This document shows positions 2,712 through 27,916 of a stretch of DNA of 64,000 nucleotides, piece by piece. The notes below the pieces were generated by a model. That model searched no databases. It was not told the DNA's origin and saw only the letters and a program-made list of their open reading frames with translations. Source of the stretch: an uncultured delta proteobacterium (GTDB lineage: Bacteria; Desulfobacterota; Binatia; Binatales; Binataceae); the NCBI GenBank assembly GCA_963734845.1, contig CAVTIS010000010.1, positions 28,795 to 92,794 on the forward strand, read 5' to 3'. Each line of letters starts with the position of its first letter. The first letter of the stretch is position 1. A program made the translations under genes and the position numbers.

Positions 2712-3793
2712 TACTGGCTCCTTAATGCGTCGCCCACCGTCATCCACCATTGCTCGGCCTGCATGCGCGGATTCGCCATCTCATTGATCGCGCCGGCCGC
2801 CTCGACCGCGCCTTTCAGGCTCACAAGCAGCGCGTCGAGGGCAAAACCTTCGGCCATCTTTGTCATCGTGGCGGTGACTTCGGGCGCCGCCGCGGCCGGC
2901 GGCGTCCGCAGCAACTTGAGACACAGTATTTCCTCAAGCACCCGCGCGATCAACTCGAAGTTCTCGGCCGCCTGCTCGCGGCTGGCGAAAAATTCCTGCG
3001 CCAGCGCCTGGGCCTGGGCGAAGTCCAGGCGCCGCGCTCCGCCGAGCGCGCCCAACAACTCGCGGATCGGCGGCTCGGCGCCGTCCGCCAGCTTAAGGGC
3101 GCGGCCGGCGCTCCCGCGCCCCAGGCGCGCGAGCGCCCCGGCGCGCTCGGCGTCCACGCCGGCGCGCGCGCTTACGATTGCCTCGATATCGCCCACGTCC
3201 AGCGGCGCGAAACGCACCAGCCGCAGGCGCGAGCGTACCGTGTCGAGCAGCGCGCGCTCGCTCTCGGCGACCATGAAGATGATCGCATGGCCGGGCGGTT
3301 CCTCCAGCGTCTTGAGCAGCGCATTCTGGGCCGGGATGCCGAGCGTCTCGGCGTCGTCGATAATCGCCACGCGCCGTGCGCCGCGGCTTGGCCGCGTGCC
3401 CAGCCGCGCGATCAGCTGGCGCACCTGCTCGATCAGCACCTCGCTTCGGCCTTCGGCGCGCGCAAGGCCGGTGAAGTCCGGATGCATCCCGCCCGCGACC
3501 TGCACGCACGACGCGCAACACTCGCATCGCGCCGCCGCGCTCGCGCCCGCTGCGGCGCGGCCTCGACGAGCCGATTTTCCCGCCTCGCGCACAGGGCAAT
3601 TCTCCACCCGGCAACAGAAGCCGGGACCGGGCGCGCGTTCGCACAAGAGCGCATGCGCGAAGCCGCGCGCTACCATCGCCTTGCCCACCCCGCGTGGGCC
3701 CGCCAGCAGGTAGGCATGAGAAGGACGGGAGAGAAGTTCGGCGTTCAGCCGCTCGATCGTTTCGCGATTGCCGCGCACGCCGTCGAGCGGCAT
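2711..3793 (-). CDS. holB: DNA polymerase III delta-prime subunit
   Basis: HAYLLAGPRGVGK, HPDF, AQNALLKTLEEPP, TVRSR; position after tmk. Confidence 0.93.
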   Translation of the reverse strand: MPLDGVRGNRETIERLNAELLSRPSHAYLLAGPRGVGKAMVARGFAHALLCERAPGPGFCCRVENCPVREAGKSARRGRAAAGASAAARCECCASCVQVAGGMHPDFTGLARAEGRSEVLIEQVRQLIARLGTRPSRGARRVAIIDDAETLGIPAQNALLKTLEEPPGHAIIFMVAESERALLDTVRSRLRLVRFAPLDVGDIEAIVSARAGVDAERAGALARLGRGSAGRALKLADGAEPPIRELLGALGGARRLDFAQAQALAQEFFASREQAAENFELIARVLEEILCLKLLRTPPAAAAPEVTATMTKMAEGFALDALLVSLKGAVEAAGAINEMANPRMQAEQWWMTVGDALRSQ

Positions 3794-4431
3794 CAGTGGC
3801 CCACCAACCGCTCGACCGCGATCAAGATCTCGGTGCTGACGGTGGCAAGCTCGCGCGTAGAGTCGATGACCGTGACCCGGGCCGGCTCGGCGCGCGCGAT
3901 AGTCATGAAGCCCTCGCGCACCCGGCGATGGAATTCCACCTGCTCGCCCTCAAAACGGTCGTAGCCGCGCACGTCGCCGCGCGCGCGGGCGCGCGTGCGC
4001 ACCAGGCCGATCTCAACCGGACAGTCGAGTACGATCGTGAGCGCGGGCCGGATACCGTCGCTGGCGAGCCGGTTGAGCTCATCAACCAGCTTGAGATCGA
4101 AGCCGCGGCCATGGCCCTGGTAGGCAGTGGTCGAATCGGAGTAACGGTCGGATATAACGATCTCGCCCGCTTCCAGAGCGGGGCGCAATTTTTCACGCAC
4201 GTGCTGCGCGCGGTCGGCCAGCACCAGCAAAAGCTCGGAGGCAACGCCCAGCGAGACCGCCGGATCGAGGAAGATCGCGCGGATCGCCTCGCCCGCGCGC
4301 GTGCCACCGGGCTCGTGGGTGAGCGTCACGTGCCGGCCGCGCCGGCGCAGTTCGTCGGCCAAAATCGCCGCCTGGGTGGTCTTGCCCGAGCCCTCGACGC
4401 CCTCGAGCGTGATGAAGATACCGGCCGCCAT
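3793..4431 (-). CDS. tmk: thymidylate kinase
   Basis: FITLEGVEGSGKTTQ P-loop, EPGG, SDRY..S..AYQG. Confidence 0.97.
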   Translation of the reverse strand: MAAGIFITLEGVEGSGKTTQAAILADELRRRGRHVTLTHEPGGTRAGEAIRAIFLDPAVSLGVASELLLVLADRAQHVREKLRPALEAGEIVISDRYSDSTTAYQGHGRGFDLKLVDELNRLASDGIRPALTIVLDCPVEIGLVRTRARARGDVRGYDRFEGEQVEFHRRVREGFMTIARAEPARVTVIDSTRELATVSTEILIAVERLVGH

Positions 4432-5619: not shown

Positions 5620-6222
5620 ATGCAACAGGAACCCCTGGAATTCTGGTTCGAGTTCGCCAGCACCTACTCATATCTCGCGGCTTCACGAATCGAAGAGGCC
5701 GCGGCCGCCGCCGGCGTGCGGGTGCGATGGCGTCCGTTTCTGCTCGGCCCGATTTTCGTGTCTCAAGGATGGGGCGATTCGCCATTCAACATCTATCCTT
5801 TGAAAGGCCGCTACATGTGGCGCGACATGGAGCGGCTGTGCGAGAAATACGAACTGCCGTTTCGTCGCCCGCGCAAGTTTCCGCGCAGCGGACTGCTCGC
5901 CGCGCGCGTCGCCTGCATGGCGGCCGAAGAGCCCTGGTGCCCGCGCTTCGTGCGCGCCGTCTATCGCGCCAACTTTGCCGAGGACCGCGAGATTTCGCAG
6001 ACCGAGACCATCGCGGAGATCCTCGCCACCGTCGGCCAGTCTCCGCGCGAGGTGCTCACGCGCGCGGAATCGCCGGAGAACAAGCAGCGTCTGCGCGAGC
6101 AGAATCAGTGGGCAGTCGTGCATGGCATCTTCGGCGCGCCGACGATGCTCGCCGGCAAGGAACTGTTCTGGGGTAACGACCGCCTCGAAGACGCGATCGC
6201 ATTTCACCTGCGCTCGCAATAG
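5620..6222 (+). CDS. 2-hydroxychromene-2-carboxylate isomerase / DsbA-like (GST-kappa) protein
   Basis: EFWFEFASTYSYL, GIFGAPT...ELFWGNDRL. Confidence 0.88.
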   Translation: MQQEPLEFWFEFASTYSYLAASRIEEAAAAAGVRVRWRPFLLGPIFVSQGWGDSPFNIYPLKGRYMWRDMERLCEKYELPFRRPRKFPRSGLLAARVACMAAEEPWCPRFVRAVYRANFAEDREISQTETIAEILATVGQSPREVLTRAESPENKQRLREQNQWAVVHGIFGAPTMLAGKELFWGNDRLEDAIAFHLRSQ

Positions 6223-6250
6223 ATCGACGCCAGGTAGCTGCGCGCGCTCG

Positions 6251-7084
6251 TCAGCGCTGGCAGTGCGGGCAGAAAAAACTCGCGCGCTGGCCGACCGTGA
6301 CGTTGCGAATCGCGCTTTTGCACACACGGCACGGCTCACCCTCGCGCCCATAGACCATCAGGCGCGCGGCGAAGCGTCCCGGCTGCCCTTCCGAGTCGCG
6401 ATAGCTACGAAAGGTGGTGCCATGGCTGCCGATCGCCGCGCGCAGGATCGGCGCGGTCGTGGCCACGATACGTTCAATTTCTTTGCGCGTGACCTTTGCG
6501 GCGCGGCGCGTCGGCCGCACCCCTGCGCGGAACAGAATCTCGGAGGCGTAGATGTTGCCGATTCCAGCGACCACGCGCTGATCCATGATGAGGTTCTTGA
6601 TTGCGGCGCGCCGTCCACGCGCCATCCGCGCAAGGTACTCCGCATTGAAGGCAGCACCGAGCGGCTCGGGGCCGAGCCCCGCCAGCTCGGGCGCCTCGGC
6701 GAGACCGCCGCGCACGACCAACCGGATGAGTCCGAAGCGGCGCGGATCGTTGTAGACCAGGCGCGTGCGGTCGTCGAGCGCGAACTCGACGTGGTCGTGG
6801 CGCGCGGCGAATTCGGCGTCATCGAAATCTTTGCCGCGATGAGTCAGGCTTCCGCTCATTCCCAGATGCACGATCATCGCGGCGCCGTCGCTAAGTTCGA
6901 TGATTAGATACTTGGCGCGGCGGCCCAGGCGCTCGATACGCCGGCCCTCGACGCCGGCCGCAAAGTCGTGCGCCATCTTGCGTCGCAGACGCGGCTCCGC
7001 AACACGGGCGCGCTCGATCGTGCGGCCGACCGCCGAACGGGCGAGGATGCGGCGCAGCGATTCGACCTCGGGCAACTCAGGCAT
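6251..7084 (-). CDS. mutM: formamidopyrimidine-DNA glycosylase
   Basis: MPELPEVE, HLGMSG, GIGNIYASE, C-terminal zinc finger (CRVC...CPHCQ). Confidence 0.97.
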   Translation of the reverse strand: MPELPEVESLRRILARSAVGRTIERARVAEPRLRRKMAHDFAAGVEGRRIERLGRRAKYLIIELSDGAAMIVHLGMSGSLTHRGKDFDDAEFAARHDHVEFALDDRTRLVYNDPRRFGLIRLVVRGGLAEAPELAGLGPEPLGAAFNAEYLARMARGRRAAIKNLIMDQRVVAGIGNIYASEILFRAGVRPTRRAAKVTRKEIERIVATTAPILRAAIGSHGTTFRSYRDSEGQPGRFAARLMVYGREGEPCRVCKSAIRNVTVGQRASFFCPHCQR

Positions 7085-8021
7085 CGCGGCGCTCCCTCGC
7101 CCCTGGCGTGGACGCGATCGCGCCGGCGCGTTCGAGCGCGTGAGCCAGGCGCACGAAGTCGGCTACCGAGAGCGTGGCCGGCCGCGCAACCGGATCGATC
7201 GCGGCGTCGGCGAGCGCGACGATGACAGCTTCGGGGGTGGCGTCCAGCGCGCCGGCGAGCGCATTACGGATGGTTTTGCGCGGGGCGGAAAACGCGGCGC
7301 GAATTGTGCCGAGCAGCGCGGCTTCATCGGCGGGTGCAAACGGCGCGCGTGCATGCGGCGTGAAAACGATAACTTCAGCGTCGACGCGCGGCGCGGGGCG
7401 GAAATTGCCTGCCGAGACGCGGAAATGATCGCGCGTCTCCCAATAGAGCGCGGTGAAAACGCTCAGCGCCGAGTATGCGCGTTCGCCCGTATGCGCGCGG
7501 ATACGCTCGGCGACCTCGCGTTGAAACATCAGGACCATCCGTCCAATAGCGCCACGCATCTCGTCGAGCCGGCGCAAGATCGCGCCTGCCGCGTTGAACG
7601 GCAGATTGCCGATCACCTTGACCGGTGGCCGCTCGACCATCGCCGCGAGTTCGACTTCAAGGAAATCACGGCATACGACGCGCACGGCGGGATGTCCCGC
7701 GAACGCGCTTTGAAGGCGTTCCGCAAGTCGAGGGTCAAGTTCGACCAGCCATAGCCGGCGCACTCCGGCGCGCAAAATCTTGTCGCTCAGGATCCCCAGT
7801 CCGGGACCGACCTCGACCACTTCCTCGCCAGGCTCGATCGCCGCCGCGGCGACGATTCGGTCGGCGATTGCAGGCTGGATTAGGAAATTCTGGCCGCGCG
7901 ATTTGCGCGGCCGCACGCCGGCGGCTTGGAGCTCGGCGGCGACCGCTAACGGCGACGTACGCCCGGCCTTGGCAGCCTCGGTATCGGCTCGCCGGGCACG
8001 TATCAATCGCGGCGTCCCCAT
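7077..8021 (-). CDS. rsmA: 16S rRNA m6,2A dimethyltransferase (KsgA)
   Basis: GQNFL, EVGPGLG, GNLPFN, MFQREVAER, FRPAPRVD. Confidence 0.95.
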   Translation of the reverse strand: MGTPRLIRARRADTEAAKAGRTSPLAVAAELQAAGVRPRKSRGQNFLIQPAIADRIVAAAAIEPGEEVVEVGPGLGILSDKILRAGVRRLWLVELDPRLAERLQSAFAGHPAVRVVCRDFLEVELAAMVERPPVKVIGNLPFNAAGAILRRLDEMRGAIGRMVLMFQREVAERIRAHTGERAYSALSVFTALYWETRDHFRVSAGNFRPAPRVDAEVIVFTPHARAPFAPADEAALLGTIRAAFSAPRKTIRNALAGALDATPEAVIVALADAAIDPVARPATLSVADFVRLAHALERAGAIASTPGARERRDA

Positions 8022-8034
8022 CGCCTGACTGCGC

Positions 8035-9039
8035 CTACAGGGAAAGAGAGGCCTCGGCGTCGATGCCGAAGGAATCGCGCTCGCCGCGCAACAGCCGATA
8101 ACTTCCGGCCATCGCGATCATCGCCGCGTTGTCGGTACAGAACTTGAGCGACGGCGCGATGACCTCGCGGCCTTCGGCAGCCGCCGCTTCGGTGAGGCGC
8201 TCGCGCAGGCGCGAGTTGGCCGCGACACCGCCGGTGAGCGCGATTACCTCGATGCCGGTCTCGCGCGCCGCGTGCATCGCCGGTCCCACCAGCATATCGA
8301 CCACCGCCTCCTGGAAGCTCGCCGCCAGGTCTTCGCGCGATAGCGCGGCGCCGGCCTCTGTGCGCAGCAGCGTCGCGATCGCGGTTTTTACTCCGCTGAA
8401 ACTGAAATCGAGCGGCGCGCCGCGTACGTGGGCGCGCGGAATCCGCACGCGCTTGCGGTTCCCACGCCGCGCCAGCTCGTCGATTATCCGCCCACCCGGA
8501 TAGCCGAGGCCCATCAGCTTGGCCACCTTGTCGAACGCCTCGCCGGCGGCGTCGTCGCGGGTGCGGCCCAACCGGCGATAACGACCGAAGTCTTCGACCA
8601 CGAAGAGTTCGGTATGCCCGCCCGACACGACCAGCGCCAGAAACGGCATCGCCGGGCGATGCTCCAGCAGCGGCGCGAGCAAATGCCCTTCGATATGATT
8701 CACCCCGGCCATCGCGATCCCAAGGCTCTGCGCGAGCCCCTTCGCGCACATCAGGCCGACCAGCAACGAGCCGACCAATCCCGGACCGCGCGTCACCGCG
8801 ACCCCGCCGATATCGCCGAGCGCGCATCCCGCGGTCTCCAGCGCCTGCTCAATTACGGGCAGGATAGTGACGACGTGATTGCGCGAGGCGAGTTCCGGCA
8901 CCACGCCGCCATAGCGACGATGGATTTCGTCCTGGTTGGCGATGACGCTGGAACGGATGGTGACGACACCGGGGCGCGTCGTTTCGATAACCGCCGCGGC
9001 CGCATCGTCACACGACGACTCGATTCCCAAAATCAGCAT
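8035..9039 (-). CDS. tsaD: tRNA N6-threonylcarbamoyltransferase
   Basis: LGIESSCDD, GGVVPELASR.H, NHIEGH, SGGHT, DDAAGEAFDK, CTDNAAMIA. Confidence 0.97.
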   Translation of the reverse strand: MLILGIESSCDDAAAAVIETTRPGVVTIRSSVIANQDEIHRRYGGVVPELASRNHVVTILPVIEQALETAGCALGDIGGVAVTRGPGLVGSLLVGLMCAKGLAQSLGIAMAGVNHIEGHLLAPLLEHRPAMPFLALVVSGGHTELFVVEDFGRYRRLGRTRDDAAGEAFDKVAKLMGLGYPGGRIIDELARRGNRKRVRIPRAHVRGAPLDFSFSGVKTAIATLLRTEAGAALSREDLAASFQEAVVDMLVGPAMHAARETGIEVIALTGGVAANSRLRERLTEAAAAEGREVIAPSLKFCTDNAAMIAMAGSYRLLRGERDSFGIDAEASLSL

Positions 9040-9092
9040 TGGTTCACTGTTTCACTGTTTCACAGCTTCGCTGATTGCTATGCGTGCCCGCG

Positions 9093-18880: not shown

Positions 18881-19566
18881 TCGGCAAACATCCGCGCAAC
18901 GAGCGCCTGCGCGATTTCGAGGTCGCCCGGCGTAGTGATCTTCAGATTGGCAGCCGAGCTTTCAACCACCTCGACCCGGCCGCCGCATCGCTCGATCAAT
19001 TCTGCGTCGTCGGTCGCGGTCCATCGCTCGCGTATCGCACGATCATGCGCTTCAACCAGGATTTTGCGGCGAAAAGCCTGCGGCGTTTGCGCCTGCCACA
19101 ATCCCTCGCGCGCAACTGTCGCCGCGATCATACGGCCGTCGATTCGCTTGAGCGTATCGGCCACGGCGACTGCGGCTAACGCGCCGTCGGTCCGCCGCGT
19201 CGCTTCGATACAGGCCGCAAATAGAGCCGGCCCCGCGAACGGACGCGCCGCGTCGTGCACCACCACGACTTCGCTCTCGGCGCTGGTGACTGCCAGCGCG
19301 ATTCGCACCGAATCCTGGCGCTCGGCGCCGCCTCCTACCAGCTTGACCGGGATTTCCAATCCTGCGCACACGACCTCAGCGCGGGCCGCCTGCTCCATCC
19401 CGGGCGGCACCGTCACCACCACCTCATCGATCTCCTCGAGCGCAGTGATGGCGCGCAGCGAATAGTGAAGCAGCGACTGTCCTCCGAGCAACACGAATGC
19501 TTTCGGCGCGTCTGTCTTGAGCCGCGTCCCGCTTCCGGCGGCGACGATAATGACGGAGCATCGCAT
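18877..19566 (-). CDS. ispD: 2-C-methyl-D-erythritol 4-phosphate cytidylyltransferase
   Basis: AAGSGTRL...PK, GGAERQDSV, HDAARP, QTPQ, TDDA, NLKIT. Confidence 0.95.
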   Translation of the reverse strand: MRCSVIIVAAGSGTRLKTDAPKAFVLLGGQSLLHYSLRAITALEEIDEVVVTVPPGMEQAARAEVVCAGLEIPVKLVGGGAERQDSVRIALAVTSAESEVVVVHDAARPFAGPALFAACIEATRRTDGALAAVAVADTLKRIDGRMIAATVAREGLWQAQTPQAFRRKILVEAHDRAIRERWTATDDAELIERCGGRVEVVESSAANLKITTPGDLEIAQALVARMFAD

Positions 19567-19697
19567 CGCTTTCGAGACCGCGGCGCCTAATCAATAATCC
19601 AGCGGGCGCGGCGCTATCGAGCGTATCGGGCGGCAAGCTGCAGGGCAAAGCGTGCGATCGTAATTTGCGCATTCAAAAATGAACGATGGCACCGGAG

Positions 19698-19733
19698 CAA
19701 AAAAGGGACCGGAATTACTTCCGATCCCTTTCA
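19698..19733 (-). terminator. intrinsic terminator-like hairpin downstream of carD
   Basis: Minus strand AAAGGGATCGGAA-GTAA-TTCCGGTCCCTTTTTT. Confidence 0.65.
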
Positions 19734-19763
19734 AGGGTCTTCTTTCGCGTTGGATGGTTGTGA

Positions 19764-20261
19764 TCAGTTGGCGAACATAACTTTGAGCTCTTCCATGATC
19801 TTCTCTTCAGGATGAGCCTTCGCGATGGACAATTCCTTGACTAGCAAGCTGCGCGCCGTGTCGAGCATCTTGCGCTCACCGAAAGACAGCTCCTTATCGC
19901 CCTTGAGCACCAGCAGGTCGCGCAGGACCTTGGCAATCTCGAGCGGCGAGCCGGTTTTGATCTTTTCCGTGTACTCGCGATAACGCCGATTCCACGTTTG
20001 GGTGTCGGCGTCGACTTTGCGCGTGCGCAGGATCCGGTAAATCTTGTCGACCACGTCCTTGCCGATCACCCGCCGCAGCCCGACTTGGGTTACGTTCTCG
20101 GTCGGGATCATGATGGTCATCTTCTCGGTGCCCAAAATCTTGAGCATATAAAATCGACGCTCAGTCCCCGAAATAACACGGCTCTGGATGTCCTCGATAA
20201 CCGCGACCCCATGCGCCGGGTAAACCACCTTTTCGCCTTTCTTGAATGGCAGATTCATCAA
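19764..20261 (-). CDS. carD: CarD/CdnL family transcription factor
   Basis: FKKGEKVVYPAHGV, TWNRRYRE, K.LSFGERKML; upstream of ispD as usual. Confidence 0.94.
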   Translation of the reverse strand: MMNLPFKKGEKVVYPAHGVAVIEDIQSRVISGTERRFYMLKILGTEKMTIMIPTENVTQVGLRRVIGKDVVDKIYRILRTRKVDADTQTWNRRYREYTEKIKTGSPLEIAKVLRDLLVLKGDKELSFGERKMLDTARSLLVKELSIAKAHPEEKIMEELKVMFAN

Positions 20262-20458
20262 TGTATTACCACGCGTTACGACCAGGGCGGACTGGATTTC
20301 GGGCCAGTTGGTGACGTAGGTTCACTACTGTCCGATCAGCGCTGGTTCAGTCCGCTTAGTATGGCACAAACAGTAGTATTTTGTAACCCCGGGCGAATCT
20401 TCAGCTAATTGGCGGGTAAATTCGCGATCTTGCGTATAATTGGCGGACTATTCGCGGA

Positions 20459-20929
20459 TCATTTTGGGGCTGGGCCGAGCGCGAGTTCCATCACGATGGC
20501 GTCTTCGCCGGGGCCGTAGTAGTTCGATCTCAAACGGCGTTCTTCGAAATTCAATTTGCGATACAGGCTGCGGGCCGCCACGTTCGAGCGCCGCACCTCG
20601 AGCGTCATCATCCGGATATCTTTCGCTTTTGCTTCGTTTATCGCCTCCACCATCAGCACCTGCCCTATTCCCCCGCGCCGAAGTTCAGCATGCACGGCCA
20701 GATTGAGGATGTGGCACTCGTCCACGATGAGCCATCGGCAGAGAAACCCTGCGACCTGGCCGCCAGACTCGGCCGGCACCTGGTCGACCACCATGATGCG
20801 CGAGAACGGCAGTATCAGTTCGCGCTTGAAAGATTCGAGGCTCCACGGCTGCGGAAACGCGAGCCGTTCGATCTCGAGGATGCGCGGCAGATCGCGGGCG
20901 GTGGCCTCTCTCACGCTGGTCGTCCTCAT
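20459..20929 (-). CDS. rimI: ribosomal-protein-alanine N-acetyltransferase
   Basis: IER.AF..PWS, HILNLAV, RRGGIG, LEVRRSN..A..LY, R.NYY..GEDA. Confidence 0.92.
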   Translation of the reverse strand: MRTTSVREATARDLPRILEIERLAFPQPWSLESFKRELILPFSRIMVVDQVPAESGGQVAGFLCRWLIVDECHILNLAVHAELRRGGIGQVLMVEAINEAKAKDIRMMTLEVRRSNVAARSLYRKLNFEERRLRSNYYGPGEDAIVMELALGPAPK

Positions 20930-20939
20930 CGGCCGCCTC

Positions 20940-21632
20940 TTAAGCGGCTTTGAAGACCACTATCTCGAGCATCTTGTCGCGCATCCGGTGCTTGAACGAT
21001 GTCACCGGCCGGTCGAATTCGACCCGGGTGAGGAAGTCGGAAGGAAACGACGCGGAGATGTACGACAGCCGGCGCATCGCGTCCCCCCGCACCCCGGCCC
21101 GCACGGCGAGCACGTTCCCGTGCAGAGTGACGGTATAGTCGTAGTCGGGCATCTCGTCGGGCAGTTTCCACAATTGCTTGAGCGAGGAGGCCGGTATTCG
21201 GCGCGGCATCTCGATCGCGACCAGGTAGGCGTTGGCATGCTCGACGACGGTGTAGACGGTACCGTAGCGGCGGTCGCGTTCGACCTTTTCGTCGTGCATC
21301 GGATTGCGGTAGCCGTCGAACGCGACGTGGCGGTCGGTGAGGGTGGCGGGACCGCGCATCCGGTCGAGCCGCAGGAGCCTGACCAACGATCCCCAGATGC
21401 TGCGATGGCCGCGGCGACGGCCGGCAGGTCCGCCCGGCTCGACCATCGCGAGGGCGCTCTGGAAGTCGCCTGCGGTTTCGCCGGCGAAGTGTTTTTCGGC
21501 GAGCGGTCCGGGGAGGGCGCTCTCGCCCCCGCCGGGGATCGCAGTCATCATCAGGGGTCCAGAATTACCTTCGCTTGACGCTTTTGGCGCCTGGGGTGGA
21601 GGCTGTTGTTCGCTGAGGTTGTCTGTCGACAC
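20940..21632 (-). CDS. hypothetical protein, possible alpha-crystallin/Hsp20-like C-terminal domain
   Basis: Host-like codon use; beta-strand pattern YLVAIEMP...VTLHGNVLAVRA...F.TRVEF...DKMLEIVVFK. Confidence 0.6.
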   Translation of the reverse strand: MSTDNLSEQQPPPQAPKASSEGNSGPLMMTAIPGGGESALPGPLAEKHFAGETAGDFQSALAMVEPGGPAGRRRGHRSIWGSLVRLLRLDRMRGPATLTDRHVAFDGYRNPMHDEKVERDRRYGTVYTVVEHANAYLVAIEMPRRIPASSLKQLWKLPDEMPDYDYTVTLHGNVLAVRAGVRGDAMRRLSYISASFPSDFLTRVEFDRPVTSFKHRMRDKMLEIVVFKAA

Positions 21633-21730
21633 GAGCGTGCGTGAGGCCGGCGATCTGTGTTTTGCGCCGGGATGGCGCGCGGTTCAAGGCTGACGATAGC
21701 CGTCGCCAGTTTTGGATGTCAACCGCGGGT

Positions 21731-21762
21731 CTAAGGCGCGGTAGCGATCGCGCGATGGAGGG
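21731..21762. repeat. left copy of 32-bp direct repeat flanking the island
   Basis: CTAAGGCGCGGTAGCGATCGCGCGATGGAGGG; 31/32 identical to 24672-24703. Confidence 0.95.
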
Positions 21763-21945
21763 ATGACCAAGCGTAAGCCCGTGTCGCTTTCGGGTTTCCC
21801 ACAAGATCGAATACGTGCACGCTCCCTTCCCATACAGTCGCTCCGTCAAATGTCTCTTTGACCGGCACTGATTGGACAAAGGTAGCGTGCCGCCGTGCTG
21901 CACCTCGATGGCATGTTTCAGTTCGATAGTGCTGACTTCGGCCAT
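21763..21945 (-). pseudogene. frameshifted and truncated small passenger gene
   Basis: MAEVSTIELKHAIEVQHGGT, then after a 1-nt shift ATFVQSVPVKETFDGATVWEGSVHVFDLVGNPKATRAYAWSS, ending at the left direct repeat. Confidence 0.7.
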
Positions 21946-23651
21946 CACAGCGTCCATATCTTCAAAGCCTCGATGGCGAGGCTCGATTGACGGTCATCAA
22001 TTTCTTCAGGTCCCCATTTACTGAATGCTCCGATTTCCTGGGTTATGAGCAATGGGCTGCTCTTATAAATGATTCGCTTTTCTTCAAAAGGCTTGTTGCC
22101 CATATCGACATTGTTTGTCGGGTCCAAGAGGGTCATGTTACCGAGCCGCTTAGCATAACCTTGGATAATCTCTTCCGGCAAATTCCATTCCACGGCGGGC
22201 GTGAGTGGAATTACGTGTTCCAAATTATAAACGGCTGTGTCTTCCAAGATACCGCCAAGATCGGGATTAGCTTGTCCTTCCTTGCTCAACTCAATTGCCC
22301 GCAAATAATATCGTGCTAAGTGCTTTTTTGAGACTCGCGCACGTCCCAACCCTTCTAGAAATTCTGCGTCGGTACGTACAATACTCTTCATGCGCTCAGC
22401 CAGCGCGGCCGTTGTTTTGACTTCTCCCTCTGTAATTTCTTTGGCGCGCAGGCCATAATGGCGGTCCAAGACACCAGCGCCACCACCACCCGCGATCAGA
22501 AACCGTACCGACTATGCCAAAAATAGTTTGAATGCCGCGGATGCTTCCTTCGGTGCGAACCGGCGGATAACAGCCAAAAGAAGCGGTCGAATTTGTTCCA
22601 ATTGAAGAATGCGCATGAGTATGTACAGATAACCCCGCGTATTCTTATCGAAGTCCTTCCAGCCGGTGTGTTCCAACGGTGAGAATAGCGCGGCGTAATC
22701 GATCGCGTCTGATGCAAGCGCGACGCTCATATCTACGGCTTGCTGACGACCCGCAACCTTCTCTCTGATTTTTTCTGCAAGTTCCTTTTCGACAGTTGGA
22801 CCATTATACGAAATCCAATAGTGTCGGAGATAGGTGAGCAGTAAGTCATCAACATCAAGAGATTCAAGAATACTAGCCATCGTAGCCCAATTCGGTGCAA
22901 CTTCGCTCAAACGATCCTGCGCTTTTCCAAAAAGGTAGTTTTTCAAGATATCTGCTTGAGATGCGCGGAGGCCCCGATCGTTAAGTGTCTCGAATAGCGT
23001 ATAGGCGTTGAAGTGATCGGGTACCTTGATTTCAATTATAACTGCGGACTCGCGCAGGAACCCTACCCATTCATATAGGCGTTTGGCTTGGTCTGGTTTC
23101 GAGTACAGCGCAACTATCTTTTTGATGTGGGCTCGACAGATTTTAATCGCTTGCGCGAGCCGCTCGTGCGACTCGCTTTTGATCTCAGCCATTCCTTTAT
23201 CTGCCTGATCCGGCGCAAGGAGGGCATTCTTTACAAAAAAATCGTTGTCTTCAGCATTCAACCGCAATTTCGGAACATGCTCGCCGCTCAATTCGTCAAA
23301 TTCAAGTAAAAAATTTTGAGTGTATTTGTTCGCAGCTTCACGTTCGTTCGGAGAACCATTAAACAGGTGATCCCGAATTGCCGATATTAGGATTGCCGTC
23401 GTTGCAAGACGTTGTTGACCGTCTGCGACTTCCCACTTTCCATCGCCACTGTGCGTCAGAACGATAGTCCCAAGAAAATATGTCTTGTTCTCACCCGCTA
23501 TCGCGTTGGAAAAGTCTTGGAGAAGCGTATTTACGTGACCCTCCTCCCATGCATAGGACCGCTGATTTAGCGGCACCCTCAAAGGATACTTGTTTAGTAT
23601 ACTTCCGATGCCAGATTCGCCGATTGCGATCCCGAGGCCGCCATTAGCCAT
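21945..23651 (-). pseudogene. GmrSD-like DUF262-DUF1524 nuclease interrupted by an in-frame TAG at 22512-22514
   Basis: QRSYAW, FLGTIV, DGQQRL, FETLNDRG (DUF262); LEHVIP and RLGNMTLL...N (DUF1524/HNH); both ORF pieces share a frame (LFLA*SVRFL). Confidence 0.85.
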
Positions 23652-23835
23652 TGTACAAGCTCCTTTCTTGCAGGAATGGAACCTGCTCACCGGCTTCTAC
23701 TAATTCACGTCGTGCCGCGAGGCGTAATCGTTCTCGTACCCACGCCGATAGAGCGACACCAGCCAAGTCCGCGCCTTTCTGAAAGGCTCGTTTCTCGGTC
23801 TCAGAGACCCTGAGCTTCATTACTTCAGTCTTCAT
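23644..23835 (-). CDS. small ribbon-helix-helix (DUF1778/MobC-like) regulator
   Basis: [32 protein letters not shown]: beta-strand plus two-helix pattern; divergent from the transposase. Confidence 0.75.
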
Positions 23836-23842
23836 GTTCGGA

Positions 23843-23907
23843 ATGTAGACCGTTTGTGGACACAAATCAAGTATTGTACTTGATTTGTGTACCTTTTGTG
23901 GCCACAA
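23843..23907. promoter_or_regulatory. divergent promoter/operator with a perfect 14-bp inverted repeat and TGTNNAC-like boxes
   Basis: ACACAAATCAAGTA-TTG-TACTTGATTTGTGT (23860-23890), flanked by TGTAGAC/TGTGGAC and TGTGTAC/TGTGGCC pairs at 11-bp spacing. Confidence 0.75.
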
Positions 23908-23930
23908 TGAGAGGTAGGGGGCGAACCGAA

Positions 23931-24353
23931 ATGAACCGTTTATCGCTGGGCCGCCAGACCCAAATAATCAATTGCCTCATCGAAGGTAACTCGATTCGCT
24001 CAACCGAGCGAATGACGGAGACGCATCGCGACACGATTATGCGCTTAATGGTGCAGATCGGCGATGGATGCTCGAAGCTTCTAGACGAAAGAATGCAGAA
24101 CCTGAACTGTCGTCGCGTCCAAGTCGTCGAACGGCAAAACCTTACGATGCGCATGAGCATGCGGCGCTTTACCAGACTTACAAACGCTTTCTCGAAGAAG
24201 GTCGAAAACCTTCGTGCCGCTGTGGCGTTGCACTTCGCTTGGTACAATTTCGTCCGCATACATCGGACGCTGCGTTGTACGCCAGCGATGGCGGCTGGCG
24301 TGGAGGATCGACTATGGTCGGTTGAAGAATTGCTGAACCAAGCTTCCGCCTAG
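23931..24353 (+). pseudogene. IS1-family-like transposase with in-frame internal deletion
   Basis: HTH ([22 protein letters not shown]) joined directly to [25 protein letters not shown]...YNF.R.H..L..TPAMAAG; the DE.W catalytic segment expected after RVQV is missing. Confidence 0.85.
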
Positions 24354-24366
24354 AGGGTAGCGCACA

Positions 24367-24642
24367 ATGCCGGGACAAGATGAGAAACCAGATCGCCGAA
24401 GTTGGTGGCTGAGAATATTTGGGCGCAGCATTCTTAGGGCCCTAGTCGGAGACTTTTTCAACTCCGAACGGAATACGGCGTCAATCATCGCGATCATGCT
24501 TGTTGGCACGCTCTGCTACGTCGTGGTCGCTAAAGGAAAATACGAATATGTCAACAATCTCATGAATCTCGTATTTGCGGTGATCGGCTACTACTTTGGA
24601 ACTAGGTCAAGGGTGACAGGCGACGAAGATGAGGGCTCGTAA
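24367..24642 (+). CDS. small two-TM hypothetical protein (element cargo)
   Basis: IIAIMLVGTLCYVVV and LMNLVFAVIGYYFG hydrophobic segments; ends just before the element terminus. Confidence 0.65.
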   Translation: MPGQDEKPDRRSWWLRIFGRSILRALVGDFFNSERNTASIIAIMLVGTLCYVVVAKGKYEYVNNLMNLVFAVIGYYFGTRSRVTGDEDEGS

Positions 24643-24671
24643 ACCTGTCGCATTCCAAATTAGGACACTAC

Positions 24672-24703
24672 CTAAGCCGCGGTAGCGATCGCGCGATGGA
24701 GGG
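24672..24703. repeat. right copy of 32-bp direct repeat
   Basis: CTAAGCCGCGGTAGCGATCGCGCGATGGAGGG, whose first C is the last base of GGACACTACC. Confidence 0.95.
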
Positions 24704-24853
24704 GGCGGCGATTGGCTTGCCTTGAAGAGATTGATTTGTAACGATGAGCACAATTTAGCGGTGGCAAATGCTTCGCGCGAGGACGCGATGCTGTTAGATT
24801 GCCTTCACATATTGAAAACCGATTGTACCGGTTTAGCCAGGAGGTGGGTTCGG

Positions 24854-25930: not shown

Positions 25931-27679
<1,749 letters not shown>

Positions 27680-27916
27680 TTCGGCTTCAATTGCCGCGGC
27701 CGGCAGTTTGAAATCGGCAATGGATAGCGCAAGGCAATCTTGAGTTGGAGCAGGTGGAGATATAAGCGAGCCTGATTTGCGGCAGCCCTCAACTTGTGTA
27801 TGATTTGTTATGTTCGTAACCAAACCGGCATGGTAGTAGCGCTGGAGATGTGACTAACTGGTTAGACGATCCAGGTTACGGCTCGTCGCCGACTTGTAAG
27901 GGAGGAAGGAATCAGG

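Follow-up and report, generated by a model that had tools for sequence, protein, structure and literature searches.

Introduction

The terminal inverted repeats (IRs) of insertion sequences (ISs) of the IS1 family are about 20 bp long and start GG...TG. Some ISs carry passenger genes inside their IRs, and the excerpts of PMC9330008 that deal with them introduce the transporter IS (tIS) concept for such elements. ISs can also lose an end: the portions of bioRxiv 10.1101/2023.06.07.543989 on the subject describe transposase-dependent end loss by strand switching at microhomologies for IS30-family, IS3-family and IS1 elements. Here we analyse an insert in a stretch of 64,000 nucleotides (hereafter, the window) from the genome of an uncultured delta proteobacterium of the Binataceae (assembly GCA_963734845.1, contig CAVTIS010000010.1, positions 28,795 to 92,794). 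The insert is the immobilised remnant of an apparently uncatalogued IS1-family element of the tIS type. An original prediction had proposed for it an undescribed one-ended system, in which a single IS1-like end inserts beside an IR-like host sequence, duplicates it and borrows it as the second end.

Results

One IS1-like terminus and a 31-nt flanking duplication

The insert is set off from its flanks by its GC content (about 46-55% vs 60-70%), and its right edge reads ...CCAAATTAGGACACTACC, an IS1-like terminus with its last base at 24672 (Table 1). No reverse-complement partner of this terminus is present at the left boundary of the insert, which thus has, as predicted, one end only. In the whole genome there are exactly three copies of the terminal 15-mer: the one in the window and one at each end of a second element. 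Exactly 8 bp beyond the terminus lies host sequence that begins with GGTAG, as had been noticed; the proposed mimicry of the IS end proved weak beyond these five bases, because the pseudo-terminus GGTAGCGATCGCGCGATGGAGGG is identical to the family terminus GGTAGTGTCC at only 7 of 10 positions. Spacer and pseudo-terminus recur at the left boundary, where 21731-21762 repeats 24672-24703 with one mismatch (31/32 identical). The right repeat starts with a C that also closes the IS end, so the host contributes 31 nt to the duplication. The left boundary cuts a small minus-strand passenger gene after ...AYAWSS, with the junction within a G run, and on the duplication and on this truncation the original prediction held. 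The duplicated host sequence holds a 10-nt palindrome, ATCGCGCGAT, at 24688-24697 and 21747-21756.

That the repeat might simply be a multicopy genomic sequence had been named as a finding that would overturn the prediction. It is not: the 25-nt core of the repeat was found twice in the window, compared with no match in 100 shuffles, and twice in the whole 4.56-Mb genome, so it is not a dispersed repeat, and this explanation was rejected.

Direct repeats of around 30 bp flanking a low-GC island are typical of attachment (att) sites, and by that resemblance the 31-mer could be an att core and the insert an integrative element that entered by site-specific recombination. We find this scarcely credible and rejected it as well. 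The repeat starts exactly at the IS terminus and ends inside the truncated gene, its 25-mer core is present only twice in the genome, and no recombinase gene lies in or near the insert (18.8-27.8 kb), where the neighbours are the IspD, CarD, GNAT and GroEL genes. It is also highly improbable that the junctions are an assembly artefact of this metagenome-assembled genome (MAG). The best public run covers only 0.17 of the sampled words, which leaves some room for an artefact; however, the partners joined at the left junction share only ~3 bases, which is not enough for a mis-join in the assembly graph, there is a one-base difference between the repeat copies, and similar structures exist in independent assemblies (loci L118 and L049 of the survey described below).

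Table 1. Features of the insert and its boundaries (window coordinates)
Feature	Position	Strand	Remarks
Left copy of the 8-bp target, TAAGGCGC	21732..21739	.	one base (G at 21736) unlike the right copy
Left copy of 23 nt of host sequence (GGTAG...GGAGGG)	21740..21762	.	extra, non-canonical part of the duplication
Small end-proximal family gene	21761..21957	-	frameshift after ...VQHGG; truncated by the boundary after ...AYAWSS
Insert: one-ended, decayed IS1-family cargo IS	21763..24672	+	2,910 bp, about 46-55% GC
GmrSD-type gene, GmrSD_N + GmrSD_C, PADLOC HEC-06	21945..23690	-	full length, one in-frame TAG (22512-22514)
Small ribbon-helix-helix-like protein, divergent from the transposase gene	23647..23829	-	weak NikA-like and RelB-antitoxin-like matches, below cut-off
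Perfect 14-nt inverted repeat with 3-nt spacer, between the ribbon-helix-helix and transposase genes	23860..23890	.	
Transposase remnant, 140 aa	23931..24353	+	in-frame deletion of residues 66-200 of the intact paralogue
91-aa open reading frame (ORF) with a hydrophobic stretch, downstream of the transposase gene	24367..24642	+	no family match
Right terminal IR, ...AAATTAGGACACTACC, sole terminus of the insert	24653..24672	+	
Right copy of the 8-bp target, TAAGCCGC	24673..24680	.	length equals the canonical target duplication of the family
Host sequence with initial GGTAG, GGTAGCGATCGCGCGATGGAGGG (pseudo-terminus)	24681..24703	.	resident, ancestral, present in the empty site of G015

The empty site in a sister species and in public metagenomes

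A single-copy empty site in related genomes had been foreseen, and it was found both in a sister species and in near-identical metagenome contigs. In G015, the closest species in the genus, with a left flank 86% identical to that of the window, the two flanks are joined through a single, diverged copy of the repeat that includes GGTAG. The GGTAG sequence is therefore ancestral host DNA, and in the empty site the 23-nt host sequence (GGTAG...GGAGGG) lies to the right of the insertion point. The intergenic region of the other 15 genomes of the genus was too diverged for the site to be judged. Twenty public runs matched the window, each with at most 0.17 of the sampled words, and the contigs of four (X1, X2, X6 and X8) were compared. 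One contig of X1 (1,380 nt, 6 differences) and one of X6 (448 nt, 1 difference) join 21730 to 24672, and a contig of X2 joins 21763 to 24706, so that all three have the empty site, while those of X8 end at 21743 and resume at 24708 without bridging. At the variable base (21736) the empty-site contigs of X1 and X6 and the G015 sequence have the version of the right copy. X1, X2 and G015 also have an extra 18-nt unit at window 21549-21566, part of a tandem CCAGAAT...-type repeat that precedes the insertion site and a length polymorphism of the left flank.

Coverage of the insert in the four runs was nil, except for a 156-nt contig of X2 and short transposase-like pieces. The X2 contig is identical to window 22895-23050, within the GmrSD gene; as the empty site is found in X2 too, the insert, or the same GmrSD gene elsewhere, may be present at low abundance in that sample. 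The presence together of empty-site and insert-fragment contigs in X2 would agree with an import of the insert by homology-facilitated illegitimate recombination from a strain with a normal insertion at the site, with homology on the right and a microhomology join on the left, 31 bp inside the homologous anchor. The left end, ragged at a G-run microhomology, and the one-base difference between the repeat copies also fit. However, a join inside the anchor that yields a duplication and not a deletion would be topologically awkward, the left flank of the window is no closer than the right flank to any one contig set, and import leaves the damaged copies L049 and L056 (see below) unexplained. We regard import as very unlikely.

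A family of two-ended IS1-like elements

The other element with the terminal 15-mer is an intact paralogue of 3,306 bp (G000 C11:192178-195483; L026 2001-5306), with perfect 20-bp IRs and an 8-bp target duplication, CCGCGGCG. The 15-mer stands in inverted orientation at its two ends, C11:192178 and C11:195483. It encodes an intact transposase of 275 aa, and its cargo consists of a HARE-HTH protein, an NYN protein (PADLOC HEC-09), an 81-aa basic ORF and a small membrane ORF. With the NYN/HEC-09 and HARE-HTH genes as passengers, the paralogue is a tIS. It adjoins a tRNA gene, tRNA-Asp as read by eye.

Our survey of the family covered 112 loci: this paralogue, 31 genome loci (L027-L057) obtained by a transposase search of species-representative genomes (mostly Binataceae and 'delta proteobacterium' MAGs, plus Pyrinomonadaceae and others), and 80 metagenome contigs (L058-L137) taken from at least 120 stretches that contain an exact IR 18-mer; the counts therefore hold for close relatives only. 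In these loci we counted 34 two-ended elements with exact duplications, of 8 bp in 30 and of 9 bp in 4. They span 36-5,984 bp, and many are derivatives resembling miniature inverted-repeat transposable elements (MITEs). L114 adds a further two-ended element, with a slightly diverged left end and an 8-bp duplication. Left ends across the survey all start GGTAG or nearly so; GGTAGTGTCCTAA... is found at both element ends, with perfect IRs of up to 26 bp. Thus, the homologues have two conventional IRs and 8-9-bp duplications, and the comparison does not support the idea of an undescribed one-ended system.

The survey also yielded several observations on the content and arrangement of the family. 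Its accessory genes include an ORF of ~85 aa starting MRKRSRK... just inside one end and a HARE-HTH protein divergent from the transposase, and many copies carry the small 'VWEG...AYAWSS' protein. MITE-like derivatives of 36-650 bp are abundant in soil and peat metagenomes. In L040, L042 and L046 the IRs are paired but the flanks have no matching duplication. The flanks of the L040 element (5673-9067, two-ended) share a 6-mer in inverted orientation only, which may be a sign of inversion between two copies. L112 has two copies of ~425 bp (131-556 and 3516-3937) whose 9-bp duplications are mutually reverse-complementary, as might result from inverted duplication of the region or from an artefact that made the contig palindromic. 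Set aside as due to chance were the recurrence of 11 nt of flank 4.65 kb upstream in L046 and an extra 11-mer in host genes in L057, and as possibly due to chance the recurrences of 8-mers without an IR in L082, L054 and L117.

The best profile match of the transposase is the IS1 family model of NCBIfam, NF033558, at 49 bits for the paralogue and 96.5 bits for the relative L037, below the cut-off of 100. Pfam DDE_Tnp_IS1 scored 21 against a cut-off of 24.1, and the HTH_29/HTH_28 matches at the N-terminus were weak. An IS1/IS1595 Zn domain scored above cut-off in L037 (38.5 vs 28); in the profile search it was absent from the 275-aa Binataceae transposases. The IRs of ~20 bp starting GGTAGTG at both ends and the target duplications of 8-9 bp are those of the IS1 family. 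In calling the insert an IS1-like cargo element with a defence-type gene, the original prediction is supported.

Decay of the window copy

The transposase remnant of the window copy is inactive because residues 66-200 are deleted, and the deletion is joined at a short repeat. With this transposase and a single IR the copy is not a functional IS. It is nonetheless a tIS by its content, since the GmrSD/HEC-06 gene is a passenger unrelated to transposition. This gene covers positions 7-368 and 387-556 of the HEC-06 profile and has both GmrSD_N (DUF262) and GmrSD_C (DUF1524), but its single open frame is broken by the TAG. The small gene at the left boundary has a full-length homologue of 110 aa in L033, which extends ~40 residues beyond the cut of the window copy, and further homologues near one end in at least 20 of the 80 related metagenome loci. 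The transposase deletion, the GmrSD stop codon and the frameshift and truncation of the small gene together make the window copy dead.

Of the other features, the inverted repeat at 23860-23890 is possibly an operator. The 91-aa ORF of the window has a positional counterpart in the intact paralogue. Protein family searches gave no significant match for the small truncated protein, the 91-aa ORF or the 81-aa ORF of the paralogue.

IR-like sequences at offset 8 and other damaged copies

The original prediction had expected the terminus to be followed, as a rule, by N8 and a GGTAG-like sequence. We scored the 60 nt beyond each of 154 ends against the family terminus, with a threshold of at least 7/10 or GGTAG. 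At offset 8 there were 6 matching ends, which make up 5 junctions (L031 from both sides, L063, L082, L114 and the window), against 32 matches in total at the 49 other offsets, or 0.65 each, with 2 at offset 9. Five junctions among 154 ends are no rule, and the expectation failed as a general statement; the family nevertheless has an apparent tendency to sit exactly one duplication length (8 bp) from IR-like DNA. The contig of L063 is too short for the partner end to be seen. In L031 and L114 the IR-adjacent insertions are two-ended with 8-bp duplications, and IR-adjacent placement is therefore reached by the normal pathway.

Long duplications had likewise been expected in homologues. They are present in two other damaged copies, while the 34 paired elements all have 8-9 bp. 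In L118 the right end is intact, the left IR is missing and the flanking repeat measures 14 bp; since the insertion interrupts the reading frame of its target, another transposase gene, this repeat can be recognised as a true duplication. The IR-like motif of L118 is at offset 5, not 8. The internally deleted copy in L049 (7950-8760) keeps its left end, but its right IR lacks the tip and the repeat that flanks it is 15 bp long; 16 nt beyond the intact end stands a CACTACC heptamer, and the flank also has a second IR-like sequence, GGTACTGTCCTAAGC. In a further damaged copy, L056, the 8-bp duplication is intact on both sides and the left IR lacks its first 7 nt. L056 and L049 keep most of the damaged IR, and those ends were therefore once present. 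IR-like sequence 8 bp beyond ends and over-long repeats in damaged copies are thus real traits of the family, and rare ones.

These traits speak for single-end transfer as the origin of the window copy. The right end alone would have joined next to the host pseudo-end, as in the IR-targeting of IS30 and IS911; the target 3'-OH would then have been extended by 31 nt of displacement synthesis, and host repair would have joined the broken donor strand in the cargo, leaving a copy that was one-ended with a long duplication from the start. The enrichment at exactly 8 bp, the start of the duplication exactly at the IS tip and the over-long repeats with a missing or damaged end in three copies (window, L118 and L049) all agree with this, and pseudo-end and one-endedness would be causally tied. 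Moreover, according to the portions of PMC9333248 and PMC7986276 concerned with it, single-strand transfer by IS30 and IS911 gives branched intermediates that need host processing, and without homology beyond the pseudo-end such an intermediate could be resolved only illegitimately. Against it stand the two ordinary junctions among the five at N8, the ends retained in L056 and L049, the offset of 5 in L118, the 7/10 match of the pseudo-end, and the 8-9-bp duplications of all 34 paired elements. On balance we think single-end transfer unlikely. The broader proposition, that the 31-, 15- and 14-bp duplications beside one-ended or damaged copies are footprints of IR-targeted single-end transfer by an IS1-family transposase, seems to us equally unlikely. 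On this view, where the target is only a mimic in non-homologous host DNA, branch migration could not complete the branched intermediate, which would be resolved instead by displacement synthesis and Ku/LigD-type joining. If it were true, an IS end could capture and fix cargo of variable length, here a defence gene, in a single step.

A proposed origin: normal insertion followed by loss and patching of the left end

The explanation we prefer, and to which we give an even chance, is that the window holds a normal insertion abutting the pseudo-end, which later lost its left end and was patched with a copy of its right junction. A two-ended IS1-family cargo IS would have inserted at the intergenic site with the usual 8-bp duplication of TAAGCCGC, which would have placed the duplication against the host sequence starting GGTAG that resembles the element's own end. 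After such an insertion both junctions would consist of a target copy and a GGTAG, supplied on the left by the IR (which in this family also starts GGTAG) and on the right by the host, and would thus share 13 bases. The left end would have been lost later, probably at a transposase-made break or in an aborted copy-out. The broken or nascent strand could then have paired with the right junction through the 13 bases, copied 18 more host bases, and been joined to the interior of the cargo gene where a short G run provided microhomology. By this route the left IR and roughly 300-400 bp would have been replaced by a 23-nt filler, the 8-bp duplication would have become one of 31 bp, and further decay of the copy would have followed. 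Judging from the homologue in L033 (...AWSSP...), a run of G would be expected at the join in the cargo sequence that was lost.

Several findings are consistent with this order of events. The conventional elements of the family, the once-present ends of L056 and L049 and the ordinary insertions at N8 favour an end lost afterwards over a second end borrowed at insertion. We also count for it the multiple other deletions and the decay of the window copy, the damaged copies L118 and L049, in which extra flank is duplicated along with the 8 bp, and the published end loss by strand switching (bioRxiv 10.1101/2023.06.07.543989). Since its genes include those for Ku and two LigD polymerase domains, the host has the means for microhomology joining with fill-in.

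Other points weigh against end loss and patching. The model requires two template switches, or one invasion and one end-joining. In L118 and L049 there is no homology beyond the 8-bp duplication to prime copying, and L049, with its outlying CACTACC heptamer, is more complex than the model. Neither G015 nor the contigs of the public runs, which gave the empty site and small fragments only, showed an allele of the site with an intact two-ended insertion. Single-end transfer, too, predicts that one copy combines a pseudo-end at N8 with the lack of an end, and the final sequence is the same under both models. We conclude that the 31-bp repeat is best seen as a scar rather than as the signature of a new transposition system.

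In the surroundings of the insert, GC content dips to about 0.52-0.55 at window 19500-20700 (CarD and GNAT genes) and at 27600-27900 (after the GroEL-type gene).

Discussion

The locus is a dated, well-bounded example of a cargo-carrying IS that has been immobilised, with a defence-type gene left stranded among core genes. Beyond it, the survey describes an abundant soil lineage of IS1-like transporter ISs, with MITE-like derivatives down to 36 bp and variable defence-candidate cargo. For annotation, a long direct repeat next to a lone IS end should not by itself be taken as a sign of a new mechanism of mobility. IR-adjacent placement and extended-duplication scars should be modestly interesting to specialists in transposition: insertion exactly one duplication length from IR-like sequence, an apparent preference here, is documented experimentally for IS30 and IS911 in the accounts excerpted above, and the rare scars are a testable handle on aborted transposition in IS1-like elements. 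We found no report of a preference for IR-adjacent insertion in IS1 relatives in the literature searched, parts of which were excerpts, and this is a weak negative. Searches on IS1-family passenger genes, on direct repeats of ISs and on homology-facilitated illegitimate recombination with duplication returned nothing specific.

How does the element compare with known systems? With the tISs of the IS1 family (single-ORF type) it shares GGTAGTG IRs, duplications of 8-9 bp and passengers inside the IRs; the best profile match of its transposase is also to that family, and an N-terminal HTH is weakly matched. It differs in profile scores that remain below cut-off, in the lack of the Zn finger in the Binataceae copies, and in the conserved accessory genes of the family studied here (the ~85-aa ORF, HARE-HTH and the 'VWEG...AYAWSS' protein).

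Internally deleted, one-ended derivatives with templated filler or variable cargo are produced by abortive gap repair of the eukaryotic cut-and-paste elements Ac/Ds and P and by the one-ended transposition of the Tn3 family and of ISEcp1-type elements. One-ended transposition of the Tn3-family and ISEcp1 types keeps the canonical short duplication. The transposases of all these systems belong to families other than that of the insert.

The IR-targeting of IS30 and IS911, as far as the excerpts of PMC9333248 and PMC7986276 present it, likewise creates end-spacer-end junctions whose spacing is constant and matches the duplication length, 8 bp here. The excess of junctions at offset 8 suggests that the transposase studied here apparently recognises IR-like DNA in its target. 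The difference is that two of our junctions are plain two-ended insertions with duplications and that the target in the window is only a 7/10 mimic in host DNA.

The history we favour resembles the transposase-dependent abortive excision of ISApl1 in Tn6330, of IS30, and of IS629 with IEE, in which, as the relevant portions of bioRxiv 10.1101/2023.06.07.543989 relate, one IS end is lost at microhomologies and the cargo is immobilised. The scars of those systems are deletions, whereas that of the insert would be a templated filler copied from the other junction, which made the duplication longer.

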